DNA of 64,000 bases. Origin: an uncultured Actinomycetes bacterium (GTDB lineage: Bacteria > Actinomycetota > Acidimicrobiia > IMCC26256 > PALSA-610). The stretch covers positions 4,446,060 to 4,510,059 of the forward strand of contig OY970186.1 of NCBI GenBank assembly GCA_963708105.1. The letters are read 5' to 3'. The notes under the pieces are model-generated. The model saw nothing but the letters and a program-made list of their open reading frames with translations. It did no database searches and was not told the DNA's origin. This document shows, one piece after another, positions 1-64,000 of this stretch. Made by a program: the position numbers and the translations under genes. Each line of letters opens with the position of its first letter. The first letter of the stretch is position 1.

Positions 1-21
1 GACGCGTTCACAAGTGTCCCC

Positions 22-654
22 GTGGACCACGCCGCGCCGACCGATACCGACCCCGGCGCAGTACCCGCGCCCGCGCCACCGGACAAGCCGGCGCGGAACT
101 CGACCAAGACCGTCATCGAGTGGGTCGTGCTCATCGCGAGCCGCGCTCGTCATCGCGGTCTTCGTCAAGACGTTCTTGTTCCAGGCGTTCTACATCCCGT
201 CCGACTCGATGGTCCCGACGCTGAAGACCAACGACCGCGTCATCGTCAACAAGCTCTCGTACAAGCTGCACCCGGTGCACCGCGGCGACATCGTCGTGTT
301 CACGACGCCGAAGGGCCCCGACGGCAAACCGATCGACCCGACGATCAAAGATCTCGTCAAGCGCGTCATCGGGCTCCCGGGCGAGACCGTAAGCGAGAAG
401 GACGGACACGTCCTACATCAACGGCAAGGCGCTCAACGAGTCGTATCTGCCCGAAGGGCACGATCAGCGACTGCTCGTCGTTCCAAGCGCAGTGCTTCCC
501 GACCGGACCGCTGCCGGCCGATCATTACTGGGTCATGGGCGACAACCGCACCGAATCGCGCGACTCGCGTCAGTTCGGCACGATCGCGAAGAGCTCGATC
601 GTCGGCCGCGTCTTCGTGCGCATCTGGCCGTTGAACCGTCTCGGTCTGTTGTAG
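22..654 (+). CDS. lepB: Signal peptidase I (frame-shifted in this sequence)
   Basis: ORF 14..634 carries FYIPSDSMVPTLKTNDRVIVNK (S26 Ser box) and KRVIGLPGETV. The C-terminal box YWVMGDNRTESRDSRQFG lies in the frame of ORF 22..654. At least 3 frame hops (about nt 140, 405, 450). Confidence 0.85.
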   Translation: MDHAAPTDTDPGAVPAPAPPDKPARNSTKTVIEWVVLIASRARHRGLRQDVLVPGVLHPVRLDGPDAEDQRPRHRQQALVQAAPGAPRRHRRVHDAEGPRRQTDRPDDQRSRQARHRAPGRDRKREGRTRPTSTARRSTSRICPKGTISDCSSFQAQCFPTGPLPADHYWVMGDNRTESRDSRQFGTIAKSSIVGRVFVRIWPLNRLGLL

Positions 655-676
655 CTCCGCTTCGGCCTCGCGGGCG

Positions 677-1374
677 CTACTCCGCGATCCACTCGCTGAC
701 CGTCGCGACCATGCGGTCAGGACGGTCGCAGTAGACCGCGTCGATCCCCATCGCGAGCACGGCGCGGATGTGCCGCGCCTCCTGGGTGTCCCAGGCGAAC
801 GCCTTCACGTCGAAGCGGTGGAACAGCGAGACGAGCCCCGCGGTCCATTCGGTGTGGTGAAAGTTCATCGCGTCGATACCGGCCGACGCGAGGTCGAACG
901 CGTGGCGTTCGAGCGGCGGTCCGATCCGGCGCGCCGATCGGAGTGGACGAGCTTCACGCCGTGTCTCCGGGCGCAGCCGTTCCAGCAGCGTCGACGTCGG
1001 GGGAGCACACCCAGAGGCGCTCGAGGGCGTCGTAGGACTGCGCCACGGCGACAAGCGCTTCGGCGGCGTCCGGTGACTTCACGTCGACGGAGCACTCGAA
1101 CGCCGATCCCAAGCTCGTCGTACACGTCGGCGAAGCGGGGGATGCCGAAGGTCGCTAGCTCCTCCGCGGTCGTGGCTGAGATGCGGCGCCGCCGCATGCC
1201 GCGGGACACAACCGGATCGTGGGCGCAGACGACCTCGCCGTCGGCCGAAAGCCACACATCGGTCTCGATGCCGCTCGCCCCGGCCTCGAGCGCGACGCGA
1301 AATGCCGGAATGGTGTTCTCCGGCTCGACGAGACGCGCGCCACGGTGGGCGAAAGTGATGACGGCCACGACCAA
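677..1374 (-). CDS. Glycerophosphodiester phosphodiesterase (GDPD family), frame-shifted
   Basis: N-terminus in ORF 865..1374: FAHRGARLVEPENTIPAFRVALEAGASGIETDVWLSADGEVVCAHD. C-terminus in ORF 677..1054: AWDTQEARHIRAVLAMGIDAVYCDRPD. Confidence 0.8.
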
Positions 1375-1517
1375 TCATCGTGCCAGGGGATACGCGACGG
1401 TCGCGCGAAACGGGACACACGTCTTCGACCAGGAACCTCAAGCGGCCCCGGGGGGCTGCCGAAGGGTGTTAGCAGCCGCCACCCGGCGGTGAATGCGGGA
1501 TTCCGAGCGGACCAGGG

Positions 1518-1872
1518 ATGGGTGACGCGGTGACAACGATCCGGGCCAACTGCCCTAGCTGTGGAGACGTGCAGCTGACGGCTGACGACCTGACCGTCCG
1601 GGTCTGCGCCGACGACGAGCGTGGCTCGTACTGCTTCCGCTGCCCCGACTGCCGCCAGGCGGTCGCCAAGGAAGCCAGCCGGCGCATCGTCGACCTGCTG
1701 GTGTCGAGCGGCGTACGCATGCAGGTGTGGCGGCTTCCGGCCGAGCTCGAGCGAGTCGCGCATCGGCCCGCCGCTCACGCCGGACGACCTCCTCGACTTC
1801 CACCTGTTGTTGGCCGACAACACCTGGTTCGAGCAGCTGGCCGCGCAGGTGCGCCGCTCGCTCAACCGGTAG
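1518..1872 (+). CDS. Small zinc-ribbon protein of unknown function (one frame hop)
   Basis: ORF 1518..1925 starts MGDAVTTIRANCPSCGD...CFRCPDCRQAV (two CxxC pairs). The tail RIGPPLTPDDLLDFHLLLADNTWFEQLAAQVRRSLNR is in the frame of ORF 1621..1872. Confidence 0.5.
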
Positions 1873-2159
1873 GGTCACTGCGTGCTCTGGATCCTTCCGC
1901 TCGCACTGTGCTGTCGTCGGCCTGATCACGCTCGCCGTGCTCGCCGACCCGCGTGCGCCGGGAAGCTGACGCCGACGGTCGCGATGGTCGACCGCTTCGG
2001 CCGTGAGCACCGCGTCGCGCTTGACGACCGCGCTGCGAGCGGCTGCGGGACGAGACCGGCAAGACGCGGCGCCGACTCTCCGGCGACTGACCACGCGTCA
2101 CTGAATCGGGCGTAGAGCCGACGCGGCGGTAAGATCGAGCTCGACGGCACCACTTCGCC

Positions 2160-2558
2160 ATGAGCCTCGGACCCGAAAAGATCATCCTCATCCTCGTGGT
2201 CGCGCTGATCGTCTTCGGCCCCCAGCGCCTCCCCGACATCGCCCGCCAGGTCGGCGCGGCATGCGCGAGCTGCGCCGGATGCAGGACACTGTGCGCGGCG
2301 AGCTCGAGAACGTGCTGCACCCCGACTTCACGCCCCCGAACTCGGGCCTTTCGACGAACGAGTTTCGAGCCACGAGGTCTCGAGCCACGACGGTCTCGAC
2401 GCCACGAGGTGCCGACGCACGACGACACGAACCACGCGGCGCTGCCGCCGAGCGACGTTCCCGACCAGCGGCAGCACCCGGCATCTGACTTCAGCGGTGA
2501 CTACCCAACCGAAGACGTCACCGACGACGGCTTCGCCGGACCTCGATCGTTCAGCTGA
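2160..2558 (+). CDS. tatA: Twin-arginine translocase TatA/TatB-type subunit (frame-shifted, 3-prime end uncertain)
   Basis: MSLGPEKIILILVVALIVFGPQRLPDIARQVG is the TatA TM helix plus hinge. It continues as MRELRRMQDTVRGELENVL in ORF 2261..2488. Lies directly upstream of tatC. Confidence 0.75.
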   Translation: MSLGPEKIILILVVALIVFGPQRLPDIARQVGAACASCAGCRTLCAASSRTCCTPTSRPRTRAFRRTSFEPRGLEPRRSRRHEVPTHDDTNHAALPPSDVPDQRQHPASDFSGDYPTEDVTDDGFAGPRSFS

Positions 2559-2583
2559 CCGGCGCGCGGCGGGGACCTGAACG

Positions 2584-3357
2584 ATGAGCGACCAGATCGC
2601 GGACGAAGGGCGGATGACGCTCGTCGAGCATCTCACCGAGCTGCGCAACGCGTCATCTGGAGCGCGATCGTCGTGGTCGTCGTTCACGGTCGTCGTGTTC
2701 GTCTTCTACAACCCGATCTTGCACTTCTTCTCGGCGCCGTACGAAGACGTCACGAAGGGCAAGACCGAGCGCAGGCGTGCGGCACGCACCACGCCGACAA
2801 CCGGCTGCAAGCTCATCGCGACCGGCCCGCTCGAGCCGTTCCTCGTCCGGTTGAAGGTCTCGACCTACGGCGGCATCGCCCTCGCGGTGCCGTTCGTCTT
2901 CTGGCAGATCTGGCGGTTCGTCACGCCCGGCTTGCACAAGAACGAACGCCGCTACGGGATCAGCTTCCTCATCGCGATCGTGCGTGCTGTTCGTCGCTGG
3001 GCGGCGTCGTGGCCTGGTTCACGGTCGAGAAGGCGCTCGAGTTCCTGCTGGGGGTCGGGGGCTCCTCGATCCAGCCATTCATCACCGCCGACAAGTACCT
3101 GACCCTCGTCACGCTGATGATCGCCGCCTTCGGGGTGGCGTTCGAATTCCCCGTGCTCTTGGTCTTCTTGTTGCTGGTCCGGGTGGTCACGACCCGCCAA
3201 CTGCGCAGCGTCCGGCGCTGGATGATCGTCGGAATCACGATCTTCGCGGCGGTCATCACCCCGAGCTCCGGACCCGTTCTCCCTATTCTTCATGGCTGTT
3301 CCCATGTACATCTTCTATGAGATCGCAATCGTGATCGGGCGGGTGATGAAACGGTGA
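2584..3357 (+). CDS. tatC: Twin-arginine translocase subunit TatC (frame-shifted)
   Basis: LVEHLTELRN, LIATGPLEPFLVRLKVSTYGGIALAVPFVFWQIWRFVTPGLHKNERRY, FEFPVLLVFLLLVRVVTTRQLRSVRRWMIVGITIFAAVITPS are spread over three frames. The tail ...FYEIAIVIGRVMKR ends at TGA 3355-3357. Confidence 0.85.
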
Positions 3358-3364
3358 TGCAGCC

Positions 3365-3716
3365 ATGAGTCCCTCGCGCGCCGCAACGCCAGTTCGTCGC
3401 CGGCGCGGCCGCGGTCGGAGGTCGTCACCGCGGTCGCGGTGGCGGTCGGCATCGTCGTCGGGCACAGCTCTGCTCATCTGGCTCATGCGCCCGGGCACCT
3501 CGGAGTGCCCGGGCGGCGGCGGCATGCTCAACCGCCAGCCCCGGATGACGATCCTCGTGCTGCTTGGCCGCTGGCGCTGATCGGCGGGCGTGGTCATCTA
3601 CGTCCTGCGCCGGCGGCAAGCCGCCCCGATTCGGCACGCCGGGCTCCATCGCGATCGGCTCGGTCGTGGCGCTGATCGTGTGCGGTCGTGGCCGGGATCT
3701 TCTGGCCGGGGCGTGA
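3365..3716 (+). CDS. Possible small membrane protein (weak call, several frame hops)
   Basis: Hydrophobic stretches AVAVAVGIVVG / ALLIWL, PLALIGG..VIYVLRRR and IAIGSVVALIVC appear in successive frames between tatC and helY. No family recognised. Confidence 0.3.
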
Positions 3717-3899
3717 TCCGTGAGCACTGTCCCAAGGCCGCCCCGGTCGAGCACCCGTGACACGACCCCGGTGTCGGTACCCTCGAGCACGCCGGCCAGT
3801 CCACACCGGCCACGACCGCGAAGACGGGTAGCAGCGTGACCGGACCACGACACCTTCCAGCGACACGAGCACGCCGACCACGCCGACCACCAAGGCCGG

Positions 3900-6544
3900 G
3901 TGACCGCCGCCGAGATCCGGGCGGCGTTCACGGCGGAGCGGCCGTTTCCGCTGGACCAGTTCCAGTCGAGCGCGCTCGACGCGCTCGACGCGGGGCGTTC
4001 GGTGCTCGTCGCCGCGCCGACCGGCTCGGGCAAGACGCTCGTGGCGGAGTACGCGATCGCCCGCGCTCTGGCCGCCGGGGCGAAGGCCTTCTACACGACA
4101 CCGTTGAAGGCGCTGTCGAACCAGAAGTACGGCGACTTCGTGCGCGGCGTACGGCGCGGACCGGGTCGGCCTGCTGACCGGCGACAACGCGATCAACGGC
4201 GACGCGCCGGTCGTGGTGATGACGACCGAAGTGCTGCGCAACATGATCTACGCGGGCTCGCACGCGCTGCGAGGGCCTGCGCTACGTCGTGCTCGACGAG
4301 GTGCACTACCTGCAGGACCGCGCCCGCGGCGCGGTGTGGGAGGAGGTCATCATCCACCTCCCGCCGAGATCGACATCGTCGCGCTCTCCGCGACGGTGTC
4401 GAACGCGGAGGAGGTGGCGGCGTGGATGCAGACGGTGCGGGGCGCGACCGAGACCGTCATCGAAGAACGCCGTCCGGTCGATCTCGTCCACCTGTACCTG
4501 GTCGGCGACCGCAGCGCGCCGAGCCTGCACCTCCTGCCCACCTTCGTCGACCACGACGGCGAATCGCGCCCGAACCCGGTGGCGACGCGGCTCGACGGGC
4601 GCAACGTGCCCGACCGCGGCCAGCGCCGGCGCCGGCTCTACAAGCCGTGGCGGACCGAGGTCGTCGAGCGGCTCGCCGAGGAACGGATGCTCCCCGCGAT
4701 CGCGTTCGTGTTCTCGCGCACCGGGTGCGACCAGGCCGTCGAGCAGTGCCTCGCCTCGGGCGATCCGGCTGACCGACGCCGACGAGCGCCGCGCGCTGCG
4801 CGCGATCGCGGAGCGCCACGTCGAGGCGTTGTCGGACGACGACCTCGACGTCTTGGGCTACGACATGTGGCTCGCGGGGATGGAGGCGGGGGTCGCCGCG
4901 CACCACGCCGGGCCTCGTGCCGCCGATGAAGGAAGCGGTCGAGGAGGGATTCTCGACGGGGCTGCTGAAGGTCGTGTTCGCGACCGAGACGCTCGGCGCT
5001 GGGCATCAACATGCCCGCCCGGTCGGTCGTCATCGAGAAGCTCTCGAAGTTCACCGGCGAGCATCACGAGTTCCTCACTCCGGGCGAATACACCCAACTC
5101 GCCGGGCGCGCCGGACGGCGGGGGATCGACGAGGTCGGCTACGTCGTCGTGCTGTGGGATCCGTTCGTGCCCTTCGACCAGGTCGCGGGGCTCGCGTCGC
5201 GGCGCACCTACGCGCTCACGTCGTCGTTCCACCCCACGTACAACATGGCGGCGAACCTCGTGCAGCGGTATCCGCCGCAACAGGCGCGCCATCTGCTGAA
5301 CCTCTCGTTCGCGCAGTTCCACGCCGACCGCGACGTCGTGGCGGTCGAACGCAATCTCGAGGTGCGAGCGCGAGCAGCTGGCCGAGGCCGAGGCGGCCGC
5401 GACGCACCCGGCCGGCGACGTGCACGAGTACCGGCGCCTGCTCGCCGACGCTCGACGCCGCCCGGCGGGCCGCGCACGGTCCGAACGATCACCGGGTTCG
5501 AGACGCTGCGGCCCGGCGACGTGCTGATCGTGCCCAAACGGGGCGGCAAGGTCGTGGTGTTGAAGCAGGAGCGGGGGAGCGGGCCGACCAGCGGGTGCTC
5601 GTCCTGACCCAGGGCAAGTCGCTCGTGCGGCTCTCGGCCCGCAGGACTTCCGCGGGCCAGCTCCGCAAGGTCGCGACGATCGACCTGCCCCGCCCGTTCG
5701 CGCCCCGCAGCCAGTCGTTCCAGAAGTCGGTCCGCCGAGACGTTGCGGCGGCTGAAGATCGCCGACGCCGAGCTCCCGGTCGACACCGACGGCGACGTCG
5801 AGGAGCTGCAAGCCGAAGATGGCGCGCGCACCCGTTGCACGATGCTCCCGGCGCCGACGTCGCGTTGCGCGCCGCGTGGCAGGCCGACCGGATCGCCCGC
5901 GACATCGCCCGGCTGGAACGCCAGGTGTCGTCGCGCAACGAGAGCCTGGCCCGCCAGTTCGACCGTGTGCTCGGCGTGCTGCGCACCTGGGGCTACGTCG
6001 AGGAGTGGACGCTCACCGACGCCGGCCGCCTGCTCACCCGGCTCAACAGCGAGGGCGAGCTGGTGGTGGCCGAGGCGGTGCGCGAAGGTCGGCTCGACGG
6101 GATCGATCCCGCGACGATGGCCGCGGTCGTGTCGTGCTTCACCTTCCAGCGCCGCGGGCCCGACAGCAACGAGCCGCATGCCGCCGCGGCGCTGGCCGAA
6201 CCAGGAGGTGGCGCGGCGCAGCCGCGCCCTCGACGGCGTGTGGCGCGACCTGCATCTCGCCGAACGGGAGGCCCGTCTGCCCGAGACCCGGCGACCCGAT
6301 CCCGGGCTTCACCGCCGCGATCTACGCGTGGGTGAAGGGCGAGGACCTGGCCGACGTGCTCGAGGACGAGGAGATGACGGGCGGCGACTTCGTCCGCAAC
6401 GTCAAGCAGACGATCGACCTCCTGCGCCAGATCGCCGACGTGGTGCCGAACGCGGAGACGGCCGCGACGGCCCGCGCCGCGGCCGACCTGTGCCTGCGGG
6501 GCGTGATCGCCGCGTCGAGCATCGTGAAGGCGCCGGCCGCGTGA
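3900..6544 (+). CDS. helY: Ski2-like DEAD/DEAH-box RNA helicase HelY (heavily frame-shifted)
   Basis: [15 protein letters not shown] (Walker A), [11 protein letters not shown] (DEVH box), [52 protein letters not shown], and the C-terminal [19 protein letters not shown]. At least 10 frame hops traced. Confidence 0.9.
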
Positions 6545-6564
6545 TCCGGTGAGCTGGTGACCGC

Positions 6565-7233
6565 GTGATCAAGCCGGGGGAGGAGTGGGGGACGCCCGAC
6601 GTCGCCGCCGCCCGATCTCGAGGTCGGACGGGAGCGACGCCGATCTCGCCGCGGCGGTCCGAGCCGCACCGGGCGCGCTCGTCCGCTTCCGGCCCGAGCC
6701 GGCGTCGGACTTCGCGGGCGCGGTCGGCCTCGGCGCGGCGCCGTCGGGCCTCGGCGTCGAGGTGGCGCTCGACCTCCTGCGCCTCGACGGCGAACCGGCC
6801 CGCACCGCGGTGAACATGGTCGTCTCGGCACCCCGCCCTTCGCGACTCGTCGCGACGAATCGTTCGACGATTCGTCGCAACGGTGCGCGTCGACGGTCGG
6901 CCGGTGTTCGACGGGCGAGTGCACCGGCGATCGTCATCGCGACCGGCCAGTTCCGGCAACGGGCTCGATCTCGTCCCCCGGGGACACCCCGGCGACGGCC
7001 GGGCCGAGGTCCAGGTGTACGCCGTACCCGCCCGCGAACGGCGCCAGCTGCGCGCCCGCCTCGCCACCGGCACCCACGTTCCGCACCCGAACGATCACCC
7101 AACGCTCGGGCGCCCACGTGAGGTCAGCGTCGACCGCCGCGTCGCCGCTCGAGGTCGACGGCCAGCCCGCGCCCACCGACCGATCGACCTCGACGTCGAG
7201 GTCGTCCCGAACGCCTATCCGCCTCCTCCTCTG
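6565..7233 (+). CDS. Hypothetical protein downstream of helY (frame-shifted, end uncertain)
   Basis: Coding-like sequence VIKPGEEWGTPD..., GSDADLAAAVRAAPGALVRF..., VRVDGRPVFDGR..., GNGLDLVPRGHPGDGRAEVQVYAV. The last block resembles the C-terminus of DAG-kinase-like proteins. The in-frame ORF runs on through the palindromic repeat, so the true stop is unclear. Confidence 0.45.
6849..6881. repeat. Family-B palindrome (GTCGCGACGAATCG TTCGA CGATTCGTCGCAAC), copy 1, inside coding-like sequence
   Basis: 14-nt arms with one mismatch around a 5-nt centre. 28 of 35 hand-aligned positions are identical to the palindrome at 18783-18823. Confidence 0.6.
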
Positions 7234-7235
7234 AC

Positions 7236-7308
7236 CGGGAATCCCCCGCAACAGTTGGCAGGAAAACCAGCGCCACGCGCCAGTTTCCCTGCCAACTGTT
7301 GGGGGCAA
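7236..7308. repeat. Family-A long palindromic repeat, copy 1 (REP/terminator-like hairpin)
   Basis: CCCCCGCAACAGTTGGCAGGAAAACCAGCGCCACGCGCCAGTTTCCCTGCCAACTGTTGGGGG; the arms are reverse complements around a CAC centre at 7274-7276. A 43-nt core is 41/43 identical to 44974-45016. Confidence 0.8.
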
Positions 7309-7358
7309 TGTGGGGTGCGCGCCGGTTGACGCGAACCGTCGCTACCATCGCCAGTCCC

Positions 7359-8965
7359 ATGCTCTACGCGCCGGAGACGTTCACCGACAGCGAAGCGGAT
7401 CGCCTTCGGCCGTATTTCACGAATCTCGACGGGCCGGTCTTCGCCCTGACCAACCTGCCCGAGGTCGTGAAGGGCGCGTTGTTCGCCCGTTACTCGCGCT
7501 CCGACAAGAGCTTGCGCCGGTTGTTCCTCGACGAGTTCGTCGGCGATCTCGACCTCACCGGCGACCTCACCGTCGACGCAACCGTCGGCCTGAAGCGCGC
7601 CGAAGATCTCTACGAGCGCGTCTTCCTCGAGTACGGCGACGACTCCGTCGCTCAACTCGGCGGGGTGCACCTCGCGTGCGAACAGGCATCGAACCTGCTC
7701 ACGAAGGTCCTCGAGTGGGGCCGCCTGATGGCGTACCTCGAACAGTCGACGCGCTACATCCCGTACGACTCGCGCCTGCAGGGCCGCTACCGGTACCTGC
7801 GCCCGTCGCAGGTGTGCTCGTCGCCGTTGGGCACCCGCTACATCGCCGACCTCGACGCGATCTTCGACACCTACAGCGCGGCGCCTGCCCGCGATGATGG
7901 ACTGGGCCCGCGAGGAATACCCGAAGCAGCCGGGCGACTCCGACTTCGTCTACAAGCAGACGATCAAGGCCAAGGCGTGCGACACGCTGCGCGGCCTGCT
8001 GCCCGCGGCAACGCTCTCGAACGTCGGCATCTACGGCACCGGTCAGGCGTTCGAGGCGCTTGCTGCTGCGCATGCGCGCCCACCCGCTGCCCGAAGTCGC
8101 AGATGTACGCCCAGCTGATGCTCGACGAGCTCCGCAAGGTCATCCCGTCGTTCCTCGTCCGGGTCGACCGGCCCGAACGTGGCGGTGCGTGGTCGGAGTA
8201 CCTCGCCGCCACCCGCGACGACACGCACGCGATCGTGCAGCGCCTCTTCGGCGACGAGCGGCCGGAACCGACGAACGAGGTCAGCCTCCTCGACTGGGAC
8301 CCCGACGGCGAAGACAAGGTGCTCGCCGCGATCTGTTACTCGCACACGCGGCTTCCCGAAGCGCAGCTGCTCGAACGGGTGCGCATGCTTGTCGGCCGAC
8401 GATCGCGTCGCGTTGTTGCGCGCGTACGTCGGCGAGCGTGTCGAACCGTAGGCACAAGCCCGGCCGCGCGTTCGAACGGACGAACTACCGCTTCGACATG
8501 CTCGGCGACTACGGCGCGTTCCGCGATCTGCAACGGCACCGGATGCTGACGATCGAGTGGCAACAGCTCACGCCGCACCACGGTTACGAGATGCCCGCAC
8601 CTGTCCGCGACGCCGGGCTCGCTCACCGCTACGACGAAGCGATGGAACGTTCGGCCGGTCTGTACGCCGCGCTCGTCGAACCGTTCCCCGAGCAGGCCGC
8701 GTACGCGGTTTCGCTCGGCTATCGCATGCGCTACGTCATGCAGATGAACGCGCGCGAGGCAATGCACCTGTGCGAGCTGCGTAGCTCACCGCAAGGTCAC
8801 CCCACGTATCGGCGCGTCGCGCAGGAGATGCATCGTCAGATTGCCGAACGCGCGGGACATCGCGCGATCGCCGAAGCGATGCGCTTCGTCGACCACGGAA
8901 CGTACGATCTCGAGCGTTTGGACGCGGAGCGCGCGGCTGAGATGCGACGCGCGTTACCAAGTTGA
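7359..8965 (+). CDS. thyX: FAD-dependent thymidylate synthase, long (about 530 aa) ThyX form, frame-shifted
   Basis: N-terminus MLYAPETF...VVKGALFARYSRSDKSLRRLF. The C-terminal half has GDYGAFRDLQRHRMLTIEWQ (ThyX RHR motif) and MNAREAMHLCELRSSPQGHPTYRRVAQEM. Confidence 0.75.
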
Positions 8966-8994
8966 ACGGATGTCGAAATTTTCGCTGAATCGTT

Positions 8995-9024
8995 GACCAG
9001 CAGCGACGCGCGTCGGTGCTGGTC
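8995..9024 (+). terminator. Hairpin 30 nt after the thyX stop (candidate intrinsic terminator)
   Basis: GACCAGCAGCGACG CG CGTCGGTGCTGGTC: 14-nt arms with one mismatch, followed by ACCGCGTTTCGCTTCCGCTT (only a weak T tract). Confidence 0.45.
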
Positions 9025-9488
9025 ACCGCGTTTCGCTTCCGCTTGACATCGTTGCGCGCGTTGAGGCTGACTACTCCCCGCCCTCGGTCTCGGTGTCGAC
9101 GACCCAGGCTGCGCCAGCCGGAGCTCGCCGGTCCGTGCTGCAGAGGGGGCGAGGCGTTAACGAAGGGGTTGGGCGGTCGTCCGGGAGTCCTCGTTAGAGA
9201 ACGTTGCGATAACCCGTCTGCCGTGTGCAGGCCGGGCCACCCAGCGGCCCCAACGGGCGCTCGAGCGGTCCGCCCACCCCTTTGCCCATCCCACCCGGCC
9301 GGCCCGACCCGGCTCTCCCCGGGCGGTTCTGGGGCCCCGTCCCGGCGCCCTAGGTTGGTCACCGAACCCCCGCTCCGCGGCGTTATACTCCGCGCCCCCA
9401 AAGGGGCGACGTGAGCGGGAAGGATTGTCGCCACCCGACGGTTACATGCCTGCTCACCGATCCATCCCCCCGCAAAAAGGCACCCTGA

Positions 9489-9949
9489 ATGAGTGACGAC
9501 GACTTCGAGGACGAGCCCACGCTCGACGAAGAAGATCTCGACGAGGACGTTCTCGAGGAGGACCTCGCCGAAGACGACGACCTCCTCGACGACGAACTGG
9601 TCGACGAAATAGACGAAGACGTCGATCGTGGTCCCGGTTCCCGGCGCGCTCGTCGAGCCCGCGCGAACCGGCGGCCGAGGACGAAGAGGACGACGTCGTC
9701 GACCTCGACGAGGAACTGCACCCCGACGACGTCGAGGAAGCCCTCGACGTGGTGCTGCGCGAGCGCACCGTCGCCCAGGGACTCGAAGAGGAAGACGAAG
9801 AAGACGACGAGCCCGACGACCGCGGCGAGACCGGCACGAAGATCGTGCCCCGCCGCGAGAACGAGTTCCTCTGCAAGAGCTGCTTCCTGGTGCTCCCTCG
9901 CCACCAGCTCGCAGACGAGAAGCGCATGATCTGCCGCGACTGCGCGTGA
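9489..9949 (+). CDS. DUF4193-type acidic protein with C-terminal zinc ribbon (frame-shifted)
   Basis: Acidic N-terminus MSDDDFEDEPTLDEEDLDEDVLEEDL. C-terminus (ORF 9749..9949): KIVPRRENEFLCKSCFLVLPRHQLADEKRMICRDCA. Confidence 0.7.
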
Positions 9950-9978
9950 GACGACCGCGACCCGCGACGGTCGCACGG

Positions 9979-12201: not shown

Positions 12202-12208
12202 CCGAACC

Positions 12209-25938: not shown

Positions 25939-25939
25939 T

Positions 25940-52140: not shown

Positions 52141-52164
52141 CGACGAACCCTCGATGACGAACGC

Positions 52165-53131: not shown

Positions 53132-53171
53132 CCCGCGCCCCGGGAGTAACCGCCCGCGCCCTGGGAGTAAC
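53132..53171 (+). repeat. Tandem direct repeat CCCGCGCCCYGGGAGTAAC x2 with 21-nt period, 30 nt upstream of the monooxygenase ATG (candidate operator)
   Basis: 53132-53150 and 53153-53171 are 18/19 identical. Located in the divergent region between starts 53004 (-) and 53201 (+). Confidence 0.7.
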
Positions 53172-53200
53172 TGGCGGTCCGGGCCTGCTAAGAACCGCCC

Positions 53201-55156
53201 ATGGTCAGGGAAAACCCCCACGCCGGGCTGCCGATCACCGACGACGACGCGACGATCGCGGCCGCGCTCGAAGACGTCAGCATCCCGACGCTGATGCTCT
53301 CGCTCGTCCACATGACCGGCGATCCCGCGCTCATCCGCGGGCCGCTGAAGCCGCAGGGCCTGTTCCTCAACGAGGTGCAGGGCTACATGTCGGAGGAGGA
53401 CAAGGCCGAGGTGCGGCGCATCGCGCTCGACATCATCCGCGACCTATCGCGACCGCGGTTGCCAACTGCCCGCCGCCGCCGGGCCCGGCCCTCATCCGGG
53501 AGATGATGAGCTGGCTCGTCTGCGAGGACGTGCCCGAGGAGTACGTCCCGATGATGCTGGAGGAGATGGAGCTCGACGGCGCCGACGCGCGGCAAGGTCG
53601 AGATCTCCGCCGCGGCCGATGCGCGCGCCGACTTCCCGGTCGTGGTGATCGGCTGCGGCCAGTCGGGCCTGCTCGCGGGCATTCGGCTGCAGGAAGCCGG
53701 CATCCCGTTCACCATCATCGAGAAGAACCCCGACGTCGGCGGCACGTGGTTCGAGAACTCGTACCCGGGCTGTCGCGTCGACGTCGGGCAACCACTTCTA
53801 CTGCTACTCGTTCGAGCCGAGCGATCAGTGGACCGAGTACTTCGCCCAACAGCCGGAGATCCAGTCGTACTTCGCCGACGTGATGCACCGCCACGACATC
53901 GAACCGCACATCCGTTGGAACACCGAGGTCGTGTCGGCGGAGTGGGACGACGACCGCGGGCGTGTGGGAGCGTCGTCGTGCGTCGGCGCCGACGGCAACG
54001 CGAGACGACGCTGCCGGCGCGTGCGGTGATCTCGGCGGTCGGTCAGCTCAACCGGCCGAGCCTGCCCGACATCCCCGGCACGCGACGAGTTCGCGGGCGC
54101 GTCGTTTCACTCCGTCGCAGCTGGGATCACTCCGTCGACTACCGCGGCAAGCGCGTCGCCGTCGATCGGCGCCGGCGCGAGCGGTTTCCAGATCGTGCCG
54201 ACGATCGCGCGCGACGTCGCCGAGCTCACCGTGTTCCAGCGCACCGCGCAGTGGATGTTCCCGAACCCGAACTACCACGAGAAGGTCGGCCCCGGCGTGC
54301 AATGGGCGCTGCGCCACCTGCCGTTCTACGGCCGCTGGTATCGCTTCTTGTTGTTCTGGCCGGGTTGCGACGGTGGTCTCGCGGCCGCACGCGTCGATCC
54401 GGACTGGCCGCACCAGGACCGCGCGGTCAGCGAGATGAACGACCTCACACGCGAGATCTTCACCGCGTGGATCAGCGAACAGGTCGGCGACGATCCCGAG
54501 CTGCTCGCCAAGGTGATCCCCGACTATCCCGCCACCGGCAAGCGCACGCTGCAGGACAACGGCAGCTGGCTCGCGCGCGCTCAAGCGCCCGAACGTCGAG
54601 CTCGTGCGCGAAGGCATCGACCACATCGACGCGCACGGGATCGTCGACCGCGTCGGGCGCGCGCTACGACGTCGACATCATCGTGTTCGCCACCGGCTTC
54701 CAGGCCAACCGGTTCCTCTGGCCGATGCGTATCGTCGGCCGCGACGGAACGCTTCTGTCGGAACAGTGGGGCGACGAACCCGTCGGCGTATCTCGGCATC
54801 ACCGTGCCGAACTTCCCCAACCTGTTCTGCATGTACGGCCCGGGCACGAACCTCGCCCACGGCGGCAGCCTGATCTTCCACTCCGAATGCCAGATCCGCT
54901 ACATCACCGGCTGCATCAAGGCGCTCGTCGAAGGCGACCGCACCGCTCGATGGAACCGCGCCTCGACGTGCACGACGACGTACTACGAGCGCACGCAACG
55001 CGAGCTCGACGGCCTGGTGTGGTCGCAGCCGTCGATCAAGCACTCGTGGTTCAAGAACGCGCGAGGGCCGCATCCACGTGCTGAGCCCGTGGCGACTCGT
55101 CGACTACTGGACGTGGACCCGCGAGCCCGAATCTCGACGACTTCGTCATTCGCTGA
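53201..55156 (+). CDS. Baeyer-Villiger / flavin-containing monooxygenase with about 140-aa N-terminal extension (HAPMO-like), frame-shifted
   Basis: VVVIGCGQSGLLAGIRL (GxGxxG), IIEKNPDVGGTW, FAGASFHSSQWD after frame repair (FxGxxxHxxxWD fingerprint), VIGAGASGFQIV, IVFATGF, C-terminus SWFKNARG. Confidence 0.85.
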
Positions 55157-55464
55157 TCGTGTCCAGCTCGACGGCTTGCTTCGACGTGAACACGTCACCG
55201 AAGCGCTCGAGGAGCTCGGCCCGGCGCGCGATCGCCGAGGTAGCCCTCGAACGCGGCTCGATCCGGGAACCACAGCAGGTGCACCTCGAACGGGAGCGCA
55301 GGATCCTGTCCGGCGCGCCGCCGGCCGCGATACACGACGCGCGCGCCGTGATCGGCCAGCAGCGGCAGCACCGCATCTTCGAATGCCGCCGCGTCGTCGG
55401 CGCGGCCCGGCGCCGCGTGCCCGACGAACGCGAGCGTGATCGATTCTTCGGTTGCATTCGGCAT
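55146..55464 (-). CDS. Small hypothetical protein (one frame hop)
   Basis: MPNATEESITLAFVGHAAPGRADDAAAFEDAVLPLLADHGARVVYRG...FEVHLLWFPDRAAFEGYLGD then ...ELLERFGDVFTSKQAVELDTISE. Possibly a dimeric alpha-beta-barrel type; not confirmed. Confidence 0.4.
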
Positions 55465-55502
55465 GCGCCAGTTTCGCGCCCGACCGAGTACGCCCGCGGC
55501 TC

Positions 55503-56479
55503 CTACGGGATGCGCTGCATCCACCAGAGCGCGGCGCCGCCGGTGAGTACCGCGAGCAGCAACGCCAGGCCGATGAACCACTCGGTGATGTCGGTCTGCA
55601 CCGTGTCGAAGCCGACCGTCTTGCGGATCTGGTCGTAGACCGAGTTGAGCTCGCTGCCGTGGTGGCGGTGAACGACTTGCCGCCGCTCCCCTGCGCGATC
55701 GCGGCCATCGCCTGCGGGTCGGCGGGCACCGGCACGTTCTCGCCCTGCACCGTGACCGTGCCCGTCGGCGTGCCGAACGCGATCGTGTCGATCGGGACCT
55801 TGGCCTGTCTTGGCGGCCGCGGTCGCTGTCGGAAACCGTCTGCTCGGCGGGTCTCGCCGCGTTGCCGATCGTCGGCGAGCCGTCGCTCATGAGCACGATC
55901 GCGGCCGGCGACCTTCTTGCCGTCGACCCGGCGGGAGCGCGGCGATCGCCGCCAGCGCACTGATCGATCGGCGGAACCGGTCGCGGTTCCGCCGCCGACC
56001 GTCAGCGAGTCGACGGCCGCGAGCACCGGAACGTGATCGGTGGTCGGCGACGCCACGAGGACGCGCGCTCGGTGTCGAACTGCAGGAGCCCGATCTTCAG
56101 GCCCGCAGGGAGACCCTGGATGAAGCGTTGGGCCGCGGCCTGCGCGGCGACGAGCCGGCTCGGGCGCGACGTCGGTCGCGGCCATCGAACCCGAGGTGTC
56201 GATCGCGAGCATGACCGTTCCCCGCTGGCGCGGCGACCTTCTTGGTGCCGGTCGGTTCGGCGAAGCCGAACACCAACGCGGCGACGGCCGCGAGCATCAG
56301 CACGGCCGAGACGTGGCGTTGCCAACCGGGGCGTTTCGGCGCGACCGATGCGAGCAGGTCGACGCTCGTGAATCGCAACGCATACTTGCGCCGCGATCGC
56401 TGGGCGATGCAGGTAGAACGCCAGCAGTAGCGAGCGGCGCGATCAGGAAGACAAGCCGCCACGGTTCTTGGAAGCTCAC
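55503..56479 (-). CDS. VWA-domain membrane protein (BatA-like), frame-shifted
   Basis: VSFQEPWRLVFLIAPL (N-terminal TM), VMLAIDTSGSMAATD (MIDAS DxSxS), AIVLMSDGSPT, IDTIAFGT, C-terminal TM ITEWFIGLALLLAVLTGGAALWWMQRIP. GAGGAG precedes GTG 56479. Confidence 0.8.
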
Positions 56480-56489
56480 GGGACACTCC

Positions 56490-57470
56490 TCAAACGGGTC
56501 GCCCGTCCGCGCTGCGTGCGCGCCAGCGACGTATGGCGACGCATGGTCCGGCGGCTCGACGACGAAGCGCACGATTTCGATCAGCCAGTCGGAGTCGGTT
56601 GACAGCACGAGGTGCTCGCTGCACCGGCATCGCGGATCTGACGCGCGATGGTGTCGTGCCGTTCCTGGGCCGCGGCCGCGTAGCGATCCCGCAGCGCGGC
56701 CGAGTTCGACTGCACGTGCAAGTTGCGGCCGGTCTCGGTGTCGACGAGCGTCAGCATCCCGACCGCCGGTAGCGAGAGCTCGCGCGGGTCGACGACCTGC
56801 ACGCACAACACCTGATGCGCGAGCGACGAGCCGCGACGACGGAACGCCGCCAATCGGTGTCGTCGAGGAAGTCGGAGACGACGATGACCTGTCCCCGACG
56901 CGGGCGCGCTCGCTCGAGGGAGTGCAAGCGTCGCGGCGAGGTCGGCGCTGTCGCCCGAAGCGCTGAGTCCGGCGCGGGACGTCGTAGAGCCGGGAGAGCG
57001 ACGCGAGCAGCTGCGGGCCGCGTCGACGTCGGCGCGAAGCGCATGATCTCGTCGCCACCCGCGACGAGCATGCCGAAACGATTGCCGCTGTCGGGCGGTG
57101 AGGAAACCGAACGCGGCGGCGGCCGCGAACGCGACCTCCGCCTTCTCGCGCTCACCGGTACCGAAGCTCATGCTCGCCGACCGGTCGACGACCGCCAAGT
57201 CTGCAGCTCGCGATCGGCTTCGGTCGTGCGAATCATGCGGGCGATCGAACGGGCGGTGAGGTTCCAGTCGATCCACCGGGAGTCGTCGCCCGCTTCGTAC
57301 GACCGCGCGCCCGCGACCTCGGAACCCGGACCGCTCTGCCGGCCGAGGAACTCACCCCGCAGCAAGCCGTCGAGCCGGCGCGTCACGAGCAGCTCGAGCC
57401 GCCGAAGCTCGGCCGCCTTGCGCGCGACCGGCGCGACACCCTTCGCGCCGAACCTCGTCGGGCGTGCGCG

Positions 57471-57474
<4 letters not shown>
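56490..57474 (-). CDS. DUF58-family protein (frame-shifted; stop assigned after frame repair)
   Basis: GPGSEVAGARSYEAGDDSRWIDWNLTAR (DUF58 signature), LVDRSASMSFGT, VIVVSDFLD, VLCVQVVDPRE. The ATG overlaps the moxR stop (ATGA). Confidence 0.8.
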
Positions 57475-58505
<1,031 letters not shown>

Positions 58506-58922
58506 GAACGAGGCTCCTTGAGGGCTTTGGGATGACGGTATGAAAGTCATGATGTCGGGCGATCCTGAGAGTCACTTGGGGGCGCGCCGCAAAGTTGCTG
58601 AGGATCTCCGGTGAACCGGAATTCAAGCGTACGGCGGCCGCGACCGCCCCGGCGGGCGCGTCGAGATCGGCGCCCGGGCCCGCACCGCGGCCGTCACGCC
58701 TGCGTCACGGGCGGAATTTACCGTTCGCTCCCGGACACTCGACCGGAGTCGATATCCGGTCGGCCGCGAGAAAGTTGCTTGGTTCATGGACACGGTCGGA
58801 CGAACAGACCACTGCGCGCGCTGTATTGCCCCGGACCCTGGTGGTGCACCCGAGGCTCACGCCAGGAGAGACGGAATGATCGAAGCGCATACCTCACGGT
58901 CGACACGGCGCGGGAGACGATC

Positions 58923-61041
58923 GTGACGACCACCGCGTCCCGGCCCACGACGCTCCTGCTCATCGAAGACGCCGACGCCGCCGCCGAACACGTCGATGCA
59001 GTCCTGCGCGAAGCCGCGCCGGCCGACTTCGAAGTGGCGAGGGCAACCTCGCTCGCCGAAGCGATCTCGTACCTCCAGACCCGTAGCGCCGACTGCGCGA
59101 TCGTCGACGTCGACATCGCCGACGCGGGCGAGACTCGCGCTCGTCGAGCAGTTCGCGACCCGCTCCCCCGGTGTGCCCCTCGTCGCGATCACGGGTCGGA
59201 CCGACGACGAGATCGGGCTCGCGACCGTGCACGCGGGGGTGATCGACGTGTTGTCGAAGCGCGCGCTCGACGGCAACATGCTCGTTTCGTCGATTCGCCA
59301 CGCGATCCTCCTGAAACGCTCCGAGCTGTCGCTGGACGAAGTGCAGAGCATCGCCCGGATCGGAAGCTGGGCCGTCGAGCTCGCGAGCGGCGAGGTGAGC
59401 TGGTCGCACGAGCTGTACCGCTTGCTCGGATTCGGCGAAGACCAGACGCCCGGTTACCAGCAGATCATCGACCGCATCCACCCCGACGATCGCGAGACGA
59501 CGATCGCGGCGGTCACCGCAACGGTCGCGTCGACGAATCCGTTCACCGTCGAACATCGCGTGTTGCTCCCCGACGGCTCCGAGTGTTGGATGCGGTTCCG
59601 GGGCCGGGTCGAGCTCGACGGCGACGGCGCGCCCGAACGTCTGCTCGGCACCGCCCAGGACATCTCCGAAGAACGCGGCCGCGGTCGCTGCGCTCCTGCA
59701 CCAGGAGTTGCACGATCCGCTCACCGGTCTTCCGAACCGGCGCCTCCTCGTCGACCGCATCGAGCAGGCCCTGACGCGGCTGGCCCGCGATGCCGCTTCA
59801 TCGTCGGTGTGATCCATTTCGACATCGATCGCTTCAAGGTCATCAACGACAACCTCGGCTACGCCGTCGGGCGACGAACTGCTTCTTGCGACCGCGACCC
59901 GTCTACGCGATCTCGATCCGGCCCGAGGACACGCTGGCCCGGATCGAGGGCGACGAGTTCGTCGTGCTGTGCGAAGGGACTCTCCGATCAGGCCGAGGCG
60001 AAGAGCATCGCCGACCGCATCTGCGCGGCGATGACGCGAGCCACTCGATTGGGACGGCGGGCGAACTCGTCATCTCGGTCAGCGCGGGCGTCGCGCTCGC
60101 GTCGTCGCCGTCGGTGGAAGCCGGCGCGCTGCTCGGCGACGCCGACGCGGCGATGTACCGCGCCAAGGCGGCCGGGCGCGCCCGCTCGGCGTTGTTCGCC
60201 GAGAGCGATGCGCCCGACCGGCGTCGGCCGGCTCGACACCGAGACCTCGTTGCGGCAATCGATCGTCAACGGCGACCTGCGCGTGCACTACCAACCCATC
60301 GTCAGCCTCGTCGACGGGCAGATCCTCGGCCACGAGGCGCTCGTCCGGTGGGCGCATCCGGCGCGCGGTCTGCTCGGTCCCGACGAGTTCATCACGATCG
60401 CCGAGGAGATCGGGACTGATCGTTCCGCTCGGCGCGTGGGTGGTGCGCGAAGCGTGCATGCAGGCGAAGCGATTCCAGAGTCGCGATCCGCGGTGGCCGC
60501 GCCTGATGATGTCGGTCAACCTCTCCGGCGCGCAGCTCGGGCAGCCCGACCTCGTCGAGCTCATCACCTCCGCGCTCGAGCGACTCCGAGCTCGACGCCC
60601 GAAGACCTCCAACTCGAGATGACCGAGAGCGTCCTGATGGACGACGCCCCGACCACGATCACCGTCCTCGAAGCGCTGCAAGACCTCGGCGTGCGCTTGA
60701 GCATCGACGACTTCGGGACGGGCTACTCGTCGCTCGCGTATCTCCGGCGTTTCCCGGTCGACGTGTTGAAGATCGACCGCACGTTCGTCGGCGGTCTCGG
60801 CAAGGACCTCGAGGACTCCGCGATCGTCGCCGCGGTCGTGAACCTCGCCGACACGCTCGGCTTCACCACGATCGCCGAAGGCGTCGAGACCGAGCTGCAA
60901 CGCGACTGCCTCGTCGGCCTCGGCTGCTCGCGCGCGCAGGGCTATCTGTTCGCCCGGCCCGTCGCCGCGGCCGAAGCCGAATCGCACTCGATCACGCCAC
61001 CGGCGCGGTCACGACTCGCTCGTAACCGCAGCCGTTCGTAA
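58923..61041 (+). CDS. REC-PAS-GGDEF-EAL signalling protein; GGDEF site reads EGDEF, EAL motifs intact (frame-shifted)
   Basis: REC LLLIEDAD...AIVDVDI...LVAITGRTD; PAS IGSWAVELASGEVSWSHELYRLLGF; LHDPLTGLPNRR, LARIEGDEFVVL; EAL domain HYQPIV, GHEALVRW, QLEMTES, SIDDFGTGYSSL, LKIDRTFV, IAEGVET, QGYLFARP. Confidence 0.85.
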
Positions 61042-61067
61042 GACCGCAAGCGTTCCCTGGAGGCGCG

Positions 61068-64000
61068 ATGACCGCTCTGGCCGATGACACCGACGTCGAC
61101 GGCGGTCGACGACCGATCGAAGCCAACGCGCTGCTGACGTTCCTCGCCCAGGTGAAGACGGGCGACTTCTCGGCGCGCATGCCGCTCGACTGGACCGGCG
61201 TCGCGGGCAAGGTCGCCGACGGCTTCAACGAGATCATCATCGGCGAACGAGACGTTCAGCGCGGAGCTCGCACGCGTGAGCGACGTGGTCGGCAAACAGG
61301 GACAGCTGTCGCAGCGCATCGAGCGCGGGGGCATTGACCACGCGTTGGTCGGGACCGATCGACTCGGTCAACAGCCTCATCGACGACCTCGTCCGCCCGA
61401 CGAGCGAGATGCAGCGCGTCATCGGCGCGGTCGCCGACGGCGACCTCAGCAAGAAGGTCTCCGCCGACGTCCGCGGCGAGATGCTCGACCTCAAGAGCAC
61501 GATCAACGCGATGGTCGATCAGCTCAACGGCTTCATCTCCGAAGTGACCCGCGTCGCCCGCGAGGTCGGTACCGAAGGCAAGCTCGGTCAGGCCGCCGCG
61601 GTCACGATCGAGGTCGGCGGCGTGTGGAAGGACCTCACCGACAACGTCAACCTCATGGCCCGCAACCTGACCGGCCAGGTGCGCAACATCGCCGAGGTCA
61701 CGACCGCGGTCGCGCAACGGCGACCTCAGCAAGAAGATCTCGATCGACGTGCAGGGCGAGTTCCTCGAGCTGAAGAACACCGTCAACGCGATGGTCGATC
61801 AGCTCAACGCGTTCGCCGGTGAGGTGACCCGAGTCGCACGCGAGGTCGGGCGTCGAGGGCAAGCTCGGCGGTCAGGCGCAGTCGACCGAAGTCAGCGGCG
61901 TCTGGAAGGACCTCACCGACAACGTCAACCAGCTCGCCGCGAACCTCACCAACCAGGTGCGCGCGATCTCGGACGTGGCGACCGCGGTGACCGAGGGCGA
62001 CCTCACCCGCCAGGTGCGCGTCGAGGCGAGCGGCGAAGTCGCGGTGTTGAAGGACACGCTCAACGAGATGATCCGCACGCTCGGCGAGACGACCCGCGAG
62101 AACATCGAACAAGACTGGTTGAAGACGAACCGCGAGCGGTTCACCCGCATGCTCCAGGGTCAGCGCGACCTCTCCGAGGTGTCGAGCATGATCCTCTCCG
62201 AGCTCGCGCCGCTCGTGTCCGCGCAACACGGCGTCTTCTATTCGATGACGAATCCGTCCGACGGCACCGAACCGGTGCTCGAGCTCACCGCGGGCTACGG
62301 CTACGAGGAACGCAAGCACCTCTCCACCACGTTCCGCATCGGCGAGGGCCTCGTCGGCCAGTGCGCGAAGGAGAAGACGCGCATCCTGCTCACCGATGTG
62401 CCCGGCGACTACGTGCAGATCAACTCCGGGCTCGGATCGTCGCCGCCGCTCAACATCATCGTGCTGCCCGGTCCTGTTCGAAGGTGCGGTGCGCGCGGTT
62501 GTCGAGCTCGCGTCGTTCTCGCCGTTCAGCGTCACCCACCAGGCGTTCCTCGAGCAGCTGCCCGGAGAGCATCGGCCTCGACATGAACACCATCGAAGCG
62601 AACACGCTCACCGAGAACCTGCTGCGCCAGTCGCAGTCGCAGGCCGAGGAGCTGCGTTCGCAACAAGAGGAGCTGCGCGAGTCGAACGAAGACCTCGAGC
62701 GCCAGGCGAGCCTGCTCGCCGAACGCAACATCGAAGCGGAGCAGAAGAACGAAGAGGTCGAGCAGTCGAAGCTGCTCGTGGAGGAGAAGGCGTCCGAGCT
62801 CGCGGTCTCGTCGAAGTACAAGTCGGAGTTCATCGCGAACATGTCGCACGAACTGCGCACGCCGCTCAACAGCTTGTTGATCCTCGCCGAACAGCTCGCC
62901 GACGATCCCGAGCACAACATGACCGATACGCAGGTCGAGTACGCGGGCGTCATCCTCGGCTCGGGCCGCGACCTGCTCGGCCTGCTCAACAGCATCCTCG
63001 ATCTGGCCAAGGTCGAGTCGGGAACCGCGACGGTCGAGATGACCGACGTCTCGGTCGGGCAGCTGCACGACGACCTGATTCGCGAGTTCGACCATGTGGC
63101 CCGGGCCAAGGGCGTCGGGCTTCGCGATCGACGTCGCGGCCGAGTGCCCGGTCGAGATCGTCACCGACCCGCAGCGCCTGCGCCAGATCCTGAAGAACCT
63201 GATCGCCAACGCGTTCAAGTTCACCGAGCAGGGCGAGGTCGACCTCCGCGTCGTCGATCGGCGCGCGACGGTTGGAGCCCCGAGACGACGACCTTGGCTT
63301 GCCGCGCCCTCGGTACTCGCCTTCGCCGTGCGCGACACCGGCATCGGGATCGAGAGCACAGCAGCAACGGCGCATCTTCGAGGCGTTCGCGCAAGGCGAC
63401 GGAACCACCGCGCGCCTCTACGGCGGCACCGGGCTCGGGCTCTCGATCAGCCGTGAGCTCGTCGGTCTGCTCGGCGGCGAGATCACGCTGTCGAGCACGC
63501 CCGGCCAGGGCAGCACGTTCACCGTGTTCCTGCCGCTCGGCCGGCGTCGCGACCACGCCGACCGCGGCCCGACGACCTCCGACACCGTCGATCCCGGAAC
63601 GGCCCGCTGTCGCTCGTTGCCGCGAACGACTGGGCCGCCAAGGACACGCTCGCGCCGAAGCCGGAACGCAACCGGCGCAACGGCCTCGACGACCGTCCGT
63701 TCGAAGGCCGGAAGCATCCTCGTCATCGACGACGACTTCCGCAACGTCTTCGCGCTGACCGCGCTGCTCGAGCGGGGCCGGGCCGAGGTGACCGTCGCCG
63801 AGAGCGGAAGCGCGGCGATCGCGCTCCTCGACGGCAGCACCGCCGATGTCGACCTCGTGCTGACCGACATCATGATGCCGGGCATGGACGGCTACGACAC
63901 CATGCGCGCGATCCGCGCGCTCGACCAGTTCAAGACGGTGCCGATCATCGCGGTGACCGGCAAGGTCGTGCCCGGCGAACGGCAACGCTGTCTCGACGCG
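61068..64000 (+). CDS. Hybrid sensor kinase: poly-HAMP array, GAF, coiled coil, HisKA-HATPase_c, receiver (frame-shifted; continues beyond the window)
   Basis: About 92-aa double-HAMP units repeat ([32 protein letters not shown]... / [32 protein letters not shown]...). [18 protein letters not shown]; H box [12 protein letters not shown]; [13 protein letters not shown]; [14 protein letters not shown]...[13 protein letters not shown]. Confidence 0.85.

Follow-up and report, generated by a model that had tools for sequence, protein, structure and literature searches.

The window, the whole 64-kb stretch of DNA that was analysed, carries conserved genes whose reading frames are interrupted in some stretches and uninterrupted in others. 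Alignment to L004, a relative with about 90% DNA identity that was used for both DNA and protein alignment, placed about 79 events in a first disrupted zone (positions 1-13771), which covers lepB, a GDPD-domain (glycerophosphodiester phosphodiesterase) gene, tatA, tatC, helY, thyX, lnt and the first two thirds of an M3 peptidase gene and has a clean stretch inside it at 10751-12382. The following 7.55 kb (13772-21324), with the end of the M3 peptidase gene, a DAP-dehydrogenase-like gene, the Calx-beta gene and four more genes, contained 0 events. A short disrupted patch (21325-22807, 5 events) spans an alpha/beta hydrolase gene and a GCV_T-domain gene (21429-22948, minus strand, 4 events), and the mostly clean 6.3 kb after it (22808-29084) showed three single-base insertions only, at 25488, 27505 and 27845. 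The second disrupted zone (29085-46453, about 78 events) includes ggt, an acyl-CoA synthetase gene, amidohydrolase, acyltransferase_3, PilZ, FliN-like, phosphoesterase and PhyH genes and two SDR genes; the frame hop at 40268 belongs to the FliN/SepQ-like gene rather than to gcvT. A clean run of 7 kb (46454-53437) holds a DegT aminotransferase, a methyltransferase, a hybrid histidine kinase and others, and is followed by the third disrupted zone (53438-64000, about 66 events) with a flavin monooxygenase gene, BatA/DUF58/MoxR genes, a GGDEF-EAL gene and a HAMP histidine kinase gene. Scans of the window for tRNA and Rfam families found nothing.

To count the events, proteins encoded on contigs in synteny with the window, from close relatives at about 91% and about 81% DNA identity, were aligned to it with frameshifts allowed, giving 55,570 nt of assessable coding sequence and 17,109 aligned codons. 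In these 55.6 kb we found 229 frame-changing events: 188 one-base insertions, 13 two-base insertions, 27 one-base deletions and 1 two-base deletion. The frame hops had been described as running in both directions, and both kinds do occur, but they are strongly lopsided (201 insertions versus 28 deletions, about 7:1). The DNA-level comparison with the relative gave 176 one-base insertions and 50 one-base deletions. None of the 17,109 aligned codons is an in-frame stop, in agreement with the earlier claim that no nonsense codons lie between the hops. A reference-free frame tracker based on codon usage divided the 64-kb window into 271 segments and found 1.49 unexplained same-strand frame switches per kb of coding sequence, compared with 0.05, 0.11 and 0 in three control loci run through the same tracker. 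Its resolution is too coarse to check single homology-called events spaced less than 100 nt apart; it recovered the previously listed hop sites at 139/140, 403/404, 453/454, 4143/4144, 4269/4270, 21321/21322 and 40268/40269.

When 1-2 nt were taken out at each event, full-length and family-typical proteins were restored, and without the extra bases the proteins are 90-99% identical to the intact genes of the syntenic relative. On the most likely reading, the frame shift that every extra base brings about is all that makes the genes look broken. The stitched proteins of lepB (TIGR02227 positions 1-162 of 162), lnt (TIGR00546 positions 4-394 of 395), ggt (TIGR00066 positions 1-503 of 518) and the acyl-CoA synthetase (NF005863 positions 2-536 of 540, 677 bits) each matched its NCBIfam model as a single end-to-end alignment. 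In lepB, the three hops noted earlier within 450 nt correspond to insertions at 142, 413 and 455, and the out-and-back pair reported in tatC is present as a deletion at 2648 and an insertion at 2679. The Ski2/Mtr4-like helicase gene helY (3900-6541, plus strand), where at least 10 hops had been traced, is legible only with about 19 frame corrections (7 + 10 + 2 = 19 events against the three helY pieces of the relative), and residues 29-557 of its stitched protein align continuously with residues 67-604 of Mtr4/DOB1 (E = 1.5e-98). In ggt (30098-31667, minus strand), 10 single-base insertions were found where at least 7 hops had been seen, and in the acyl-CoA synthetase gene (31721-33319, plus strand; 92.8% identity to P0001 after frame correction) the alignment gave 9 events where at least 9 hops had been traced, with 9 or more single-base insertions in the gene. 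The apolipoprotein N-acyltransferase gene lnt (9983-11518, plus strand) is 96.5% identical to P0121 at the amino-acid level after frame correction; single-base insertions at 10229, 10242 and 10495 together restore the frame, and further events lie at 10655 and 10750, so that all five insertion events fall in the first 770 nt and 0 in the last 770 nt.

Frameshift-aware alignment did not yield an even spread of events, which upholds the earlier proposal of a regionally heterogeneous indel rate. The largest event-free gap is 6,540 nt, while 20,000 random placements gave a mean largest gap of 1,453 nt and a maximum of 3,784 nt, and the variance/mean ratio of events per 1-kb bin is 3.37. Clean runs were upheld at 13772-21324, 22808-25487, 25489-27504 and 46454-53437, the only event in the last being a doubtful deletion call at 49209, where the reference is just 71% identical. 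The patch edges cut inside genes, as in lnt, the M3 peptidase gene and an 830-aa gene at 26932-29425. The suggested dependence on GC was borne out in part: events per kb correlate modestly with GC (Spearman 0.48, p = 1e-4), and GC within 5 nt either side is 0.732 at insertion sites versus 0.692. However, the count of events can be 0 or 13 in bins with the same GC (about 0.68), and therefore GC is not what makes the clean runs; as the only cause it was ruled out by the same range among GC-matched bins.

We then considered the sequence context of the insertions at the DNA level (n = 176). The inserted bases (66 C, 64 G, 23 A and 23 T) agree with the composition of the window, and only 24% of them equal a neighbouring base, versus 51% expected under random insertion. 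Natural +1 insertions arise chiefly by slippage within runs. A search for motifs and periodicity in the three bases on each side of the insertions (offsets 1 to 3) found no shared motif and no repeat-slippage signal. The sole pattern in the context is a preference for GC-rich surroundings together with the formation of CpG-containing, genome-typical triplets, which arise at the insertions more often than by random insertion; this triplet pattern counts against a technical origin. The context also bears on classic homopolymer-length miscalls of the Nanopore R9, 454 or Ion Torrent type, to which frameshifts in long-read assemblies are most often attributed (PMC9262707). Of the 176 inserted bases, 133 (76%) stand as singletons and just 8 belong to runs of at least 3, the window has no homopolymer run longer than 6, and insertions rather than deletions predominate. 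Indels that are not concentrated in runs do not fit this error class, which we rejected as a very improbable source.

The small share of inserted bases that match a neighbour is what would be predicted if the consensus had been built from a mixture of strains, with both alleles of an SNP retained side by side as an apparent 1-nt insertion and with the clean runs being strain-specific DNA. In two clean runs, part of the DNA is indeed missing from relatives or diverged in them. One contains the intact Calx-beta open reading frame (15601-18219, minus strand, 872 codons, GC 0.655), which is part of a 2.8-kb island (15580-18358) missing from the closest relative; with the Calx-beta protein as query, GTDB representative genomes and JGI metagenomes gave only hits at 33-37% identity and thus no independent assembly of this organism, and exact-sequence look-ups of three intact proteins of the window matched no entry in the searched collections. 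The other, at 46.7-53.2 kb, has 49-76% amino-acid identity to L005. However, conservation with the relative is 94-99% in the clean runs at 13772-15579 and 22808-29084, which rejects the idea that clean means strain-specific or variable DNA. The codon phase of the insertions (55, 59 and 37, near uniform, p = 0.065) is also telling. Since 73% of the mismatches to the relative are at third codon positions, retained SNPs predict about 20, 63 and 67 insertions at the 1/2, 2/3 and 3/1 codon junctions, whereas 37, 59 and 55 were observed (chi-square about 16 against this model), a distribution compatible with a uniform spread. The junction counts thus reject the retention of both alleles, and a strain mixture appears unlikely, although it is the least improbable of the alternatives that we considered.

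A biological reading would be a real and very recent mass pseudogenisation, in which lepB, tatC, lnt, helY, ggt and dozens more genes were lost by frameshifts. The deposited sequence does contain the extra bases, deletions make up a minority of the events, and the contig of the closest relative (ENA ERZ25039458, contig_21542) also has a few +1 shifts of like kind, in helY and thyX. Some of the DNA-level deletions are probably insertions in that relative (L004 positions about 4861, 5018, 5915 and 8451). But the shifts of the relative are at other positions than those of the window, and therefore they are not inherited. Bacterial gene decay has a deletional bias, opposite to the 7:1 excess of insertions, and most of the inserted bases do not extend a run. 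Instead of the mixed nonsense and frameshift lesions of reductive evolution, the aligned codons carry no nonsense change. Pooled dN/dS, which should be raised in inactivated genes, is 0.114 in intact genes, 0.087 in genes with 1-3 shifts and 0.136 in genes with at least 4 shifts, and it is implausible that a gene would gain ten indels without a matching rise in substitutions. Between genes, the disrupted zones hold 10.8 insertions per kb against 5.2 deletions, and the net surplus of about 5.6 per kb is matched by the genic insertion rate there (5.55 per kb). In addition, the patches slice through genes, and the genes hit include lepB, tatC, lnt and thyX, which are presumed essential or broadly conserved. 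Mass pseudogenisation is thus highly unlikely.

The intergenic excess likewise speaks against recoding, in which real extra bases would be skipped at expression through transcriptional slippage, programmed frameshifting or deletional RNA editing. The otherwise perfect preservation of the reading frames is consistent with such a bypass, and nothing further favours it. Instead of conserved sites with a common motif, the insertions share only their GC-rich context, their positions are not conserved, the genes of the relatives are uninterrupted, and multi-kb runs of genes contain no event at all. We regard recoding as the most improbable of all readings. Very little probability is also left for the broader proposition that the extra bases are real, either from a recent insertion-specific mutational burst or as hundreds of +1 insertions tolerated or bypassed at expression, in kb-sized domains of the chromosome.

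Taken together, nearly all events are +1 insertions, placed with no regard to codon phase, to gene boundaries or to whether the DNA is coding, and signs of decay are absent from the broken genes. The initial annotation had favoured an uncorrected consensus error, and the insertion bias, the non-homopolymer context, the intergenic excess, the lack of nonsense codons, the unchanged dN/dS and the patch edges within genes all support that choice. Judged from the sequence, we consider it very likely that the interruptions are an artefact of assembly or consensus, in which the genes would be functional in the organism and an uneven consensus quality would have left stochastic +1 errors in kb-sized patches. 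The window is a consensus from the genome, most likely metagenome-assembled, of a soil actinobacterium (Acidimicrobiia). Single-base insertion errors may have been left stochastically in kb-scale stretches at about 5-10 per kb, while the consensus of other stretches would be essentially correct. The patches presumably mirror local read depth or polishing success, with local GC as a modest secondary factor, and the errors could have come from a low-depth long-read consensus or from a hybrid assembly whose correction reached some stretches only. The interruptions are a flag of data quality rather than biology and affect about 60% of the window. In the disrupted stretches of this genome, gene calls, pseudogene counts, completeness estimates, and pangenome and selection analyses will be wrong, and re-polishing or frameshift-aware correction would recover the genes. 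For builders and curators of long-read catalogues, it may be useful to know that such errors can be dominated by insertions, lie mostly outside homopolymers and occur in multi-kb patches.

The window shares with the reductive genomes of Mycobacterium leprae and of recent insect symbionts like Sodalis that many conserved genes are frameshifted. In those genomes, frameshifts are mixed with nonsense mutations, deletions and IS insertions, with a deletional bias and relaxed selection. In contrast, the window has no nonsense codons, is dominated by insertions, has an unchanged dN/dS, and has patches that ignore gene boundaries. Editing in the mitochondria of kinetoplastids and Physarum and frameshifting in bacterial prfB and dnaX likewise involve a genomic frame that needs correction for a conserved protein to be read. 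These systems act at defined sites or motifs, at conserved positions and in expressed sequence only, whereas the sites in the window are random, lack conservation in relatives and occur in intergenic DNA too. Long-read genome and metagenome assemblies with indel errors, which IDEEL measures and proovframe corrects, are similar to the window in that conserved genes are split over frames and are restored by corrections of 1-2 nt, with the selection signal at the level of substitutions also intact; a dependence on local data quality is expected there. Low-depth long-read metagenome bins are known to retain indels that fragment gene calls (PMC9262707; 10.1101/2021.08.23.457338). While the best-documented Nanopore consensus errors are homopolymer indels (PMC9262707), those of the window are almost only insertions and mostly outside homopolymers. 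The excess of insertions resembles the profile of PacBio raw reads, with about 8% insertions versus 3% deletions (proovframe preprint, 10.1101/2021.08.23.457338), which is a likeness of profile only.

The top matches of three stitched proteins from the window all came from metagenome assemblies of the Acidimicrobiia (Actinomycetota), and homology places the window in this class. Two loci of its closest relative (L003 and L004), both from a single 1.35-Mb contig (ENA ERZ25039458, contig_21542), are collinear with window positions 37-43167 at about 90-91% DNA identity, and 43021-63999 lines up, at about 80-82%, with a locus (L005) on a contig from another sample. Three intact proteins of the window, looked up by exact sequence, gave no existing record, and the genome and metagenome collections searched contained no contig near-identical to the window. 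The GC content is 0.65-0.74 per 1-2 kb bin, with no ambiguous bases and a longest homopolymer of 6, and scans of the 64 kb for tRNA and tmRNA genes and for Rfam families at the gathering score returned none.

A self-trained codon-usage Viterbi model, which calls the reading frame without a reference, partitioned the window into 271 segments, with frequent changes of frame on one strand, and recovered all the hop sites that the initial annotation had named. Proteins joined across the switches contained few or no stops (none in 7 of 10 chains). Stitched signal peptidase I (1-162 of 162), Lnt (4-394 of 395) and GGT (1-503 of 518) each matched a curated family model in a single stretch, as the stitched acyl-CoA synthetase matched its family model (2-536 of 540, 677 bits), and residues 29-557 of stitched HelY aligned with the Mtr4/DOB1 helicase core, also in a single stretch. 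With the same tracker, the rate of same-strand switches left unexplained, per kb of coding sequence, was 1.49 in the window, 0.44 in L004, 0.11 in L005, 0.05 in L003 and 0 in an unrelated locus. Thus the tracker, the stitched-protein matches and the control loci show that the frame hops described in conserved genes are real. The hop at 40268, however, lies in a FliN-like gene and not in gcvT. The segment 38741-40881 has a PilZ-domain gene, then this FliN/SepQ-like (FliMN_C) gene, then a small ORF, an order kept in the relative.

A purpose-written frameshift-aware protein-to-DNA aligner was then used to align to the window about 60 proteins predicted on L003, L004 and L005, with an assessable scope of 55,570 nt and 17,109 aligned codons. 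Of the 229 frame-changing events, 188 inserted one base and 13 inserted two, 27 deleted one base and 1 deleted two, and none of the 17,109 aligned codons was an in-frame stop. These protein alignments gave 19 events in helY, 17 in a phosphoesterase gene, 16 in a monooxygenase gene, 10 each in ggt and an amidohydrolase gene, 9 each in the acyl-CoA synthetase and acyltransferase_3 genes, and 5 in lnt; the DNA-level alignment gave three in lepB, at 142, 413 and 455. Frame-corrected proteins were 90-99% identical to those of the closer relative. Aligning the DNA itself to L003 and L004, as an independent count, gave 176 single-base insertions versus 50 single-base deletions. The insertion bias is probably even stronger than counted, because several 'deletions' in the window coincide with L004's own +1 switches in helY (near 4861, 5018 and 5915) and thyX (8451). 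L004 helY (3963-6593) is called as three genes of 355, 347 and 191 aa, and L004 thyX (8028-8976) is split at 8451/8452; the positions of these +1 shifts differ from those of the window's events. Otherwise, about 40 kb of contig_21542 is clean.

Clusters of 5-10 events per kb occupy 1-13.8 kb, 29.1-46.5 kb and 53.4-64 kb, while the run 13772-21324 has none, 22808-29084 has only three, and 46454-53437 has one doubtful call. The largest event-free gap was 6,540 assessable nt, whereas when 229 events were placed at random 20,000 times the longest gap had a mean of 1,453 nt and a maximum of 3,784 nt; together with a variance/mean ratio of 3.37 per 1-kb bin, this bears out the regionally uneven indel rate proposed in the initial annotation. 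Patch borders also occur within genes: all five events of lnt lie in its first half, an M3 peptidase gene has three events followed by 750 clean nt, and in an 830-codon gene (26932-29425) events near either end flank 1,240 clean nt. A dependence on GC, also suggested earlier, holds in part. Event density per kb and GC are positively correlated (Spearman 0.48, p = 1e-4), GC within 5 nt either side is 0.732 at insertion sites versus 0.692 (p = 3e-5), and the 7.5-kb clean run is the GC-poorest part of the window (0.666), but clean runs at GC 0.68-0.71 coexist with dirty clusters of 6-9 events per kb at GC 0.675. GC tunes the event rate and does not set the patch limits.

A 2.8-kb island of lower GC (0.655) at 15580-18358 contains an undisrupted Calx-beta-domain ORF of 872 codons on the minus strand (15601-18219), with nearest homologues found at 33-37% identity. 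The collinear relative lacks this island, L004 position 15632 joining directly to window position 18359, and it looks like a lineage-specific acquisition. The block at 46700-53200 encodes a DegT/EryC1 aminotransferase, for which L005 has no counterpart, along with a methyltransferase, a histidine kinase fused to a response regulator, and other proteins; its amino-acid identity to L005 is 49-76% versus 83-93% in the flanks. This is a variable region that happens also to be error-free. Seven short deletions at 11842-11948 relative to L004, summing to 27 nt and in frame, fall within low-complexity sequence of the 11521-12198 gene and, unlike the single-base insertions elsewhere, look like genuine length variation.

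Bacterial mutation and genome decay have a deletional bias, and one-base insertions in nature come mostly from slippage in runs. In the window insertions outnumber deletions 7:1, the reverse of that bias, and the inserted base equalled a neighbour in 24% of cases versus 51% expected for random insertion. Inserted bases mirrored base composition (66 C, 64 G, 23 A, 23 T), and 133 of the 176 were singletons. Within 1-43167, about 48% of insertions generated a CpG together with an adjacent base, roughly double the frequency expected at random, existing CpGs were seldom split (8% of junctions versus a background of 17%), and the triplets most often produced were GCG, CGC, TCG and CGA. The codon phase of insertions was close to uniform. 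Mismatches to the relative pile up at third codon positions (17% versus 2.5-3.9%), and pooled dN/dS was 0.136 for genes with at least 4 shifts, 0.087 for those with 1-3 and 0.114 for intact genes; ten indels per gene without extra substitutions are unlike the product of neutral decay. Intergenic DNA of the dirty zones had 10.8 insertions and 5.2 deletions per kb, a net excess equal to the genic insertion rate of 5.55 per kb. Disrupted in the window and intact in the syntenic relative are lepB, tatC, lnt and thyX, which are expected to be indispensable. Taken together, the insertion bias, base context, lack of nonsense codons, dN/dS, intergenic excess with codon phase, and involvement of core genes point to error over biology, in support of the consensus-error reading preferred by the initial annotation over mass pseudogenisation. 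The feature is very probably a sequence-quality artefact, of low biological interest; it is worth a data-quality flag because gene calls are corrupted over roughly 60% of the window.

As to the source of the error, retention of both alleles at strain SNPs was rejected by the codon-junction distribution of insertions. The closest relative's contig, from a metagenome assembly with a metaFlye-style name, has a few +1 shifts of like kind, a hint that the cause may lie in the pipeline. Patches on the kb scale would fit variation in local depth or polishing; a hybrid assembly, with accurate segments alternating with uncorrected long-read segments, would also fit. Low-coverage long-read bins need extra polishing (PMC9262707), and large Nanopore-only catalogues rely on one round of Medaka (PMC12313526). 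The signature is not that of miscalled homopolymer lengths, the classic weakness of Nanopore consensus sequences (PMC9262707). A consensus or polishing step that is biased towards insertions at low depth would look the same as raw PacBio continuous long reads, which carry about 8% insertions versus 3% deletions (proovframe preprint, 10.1101/2021.08.23.457338), an insertion excess like that in the window.
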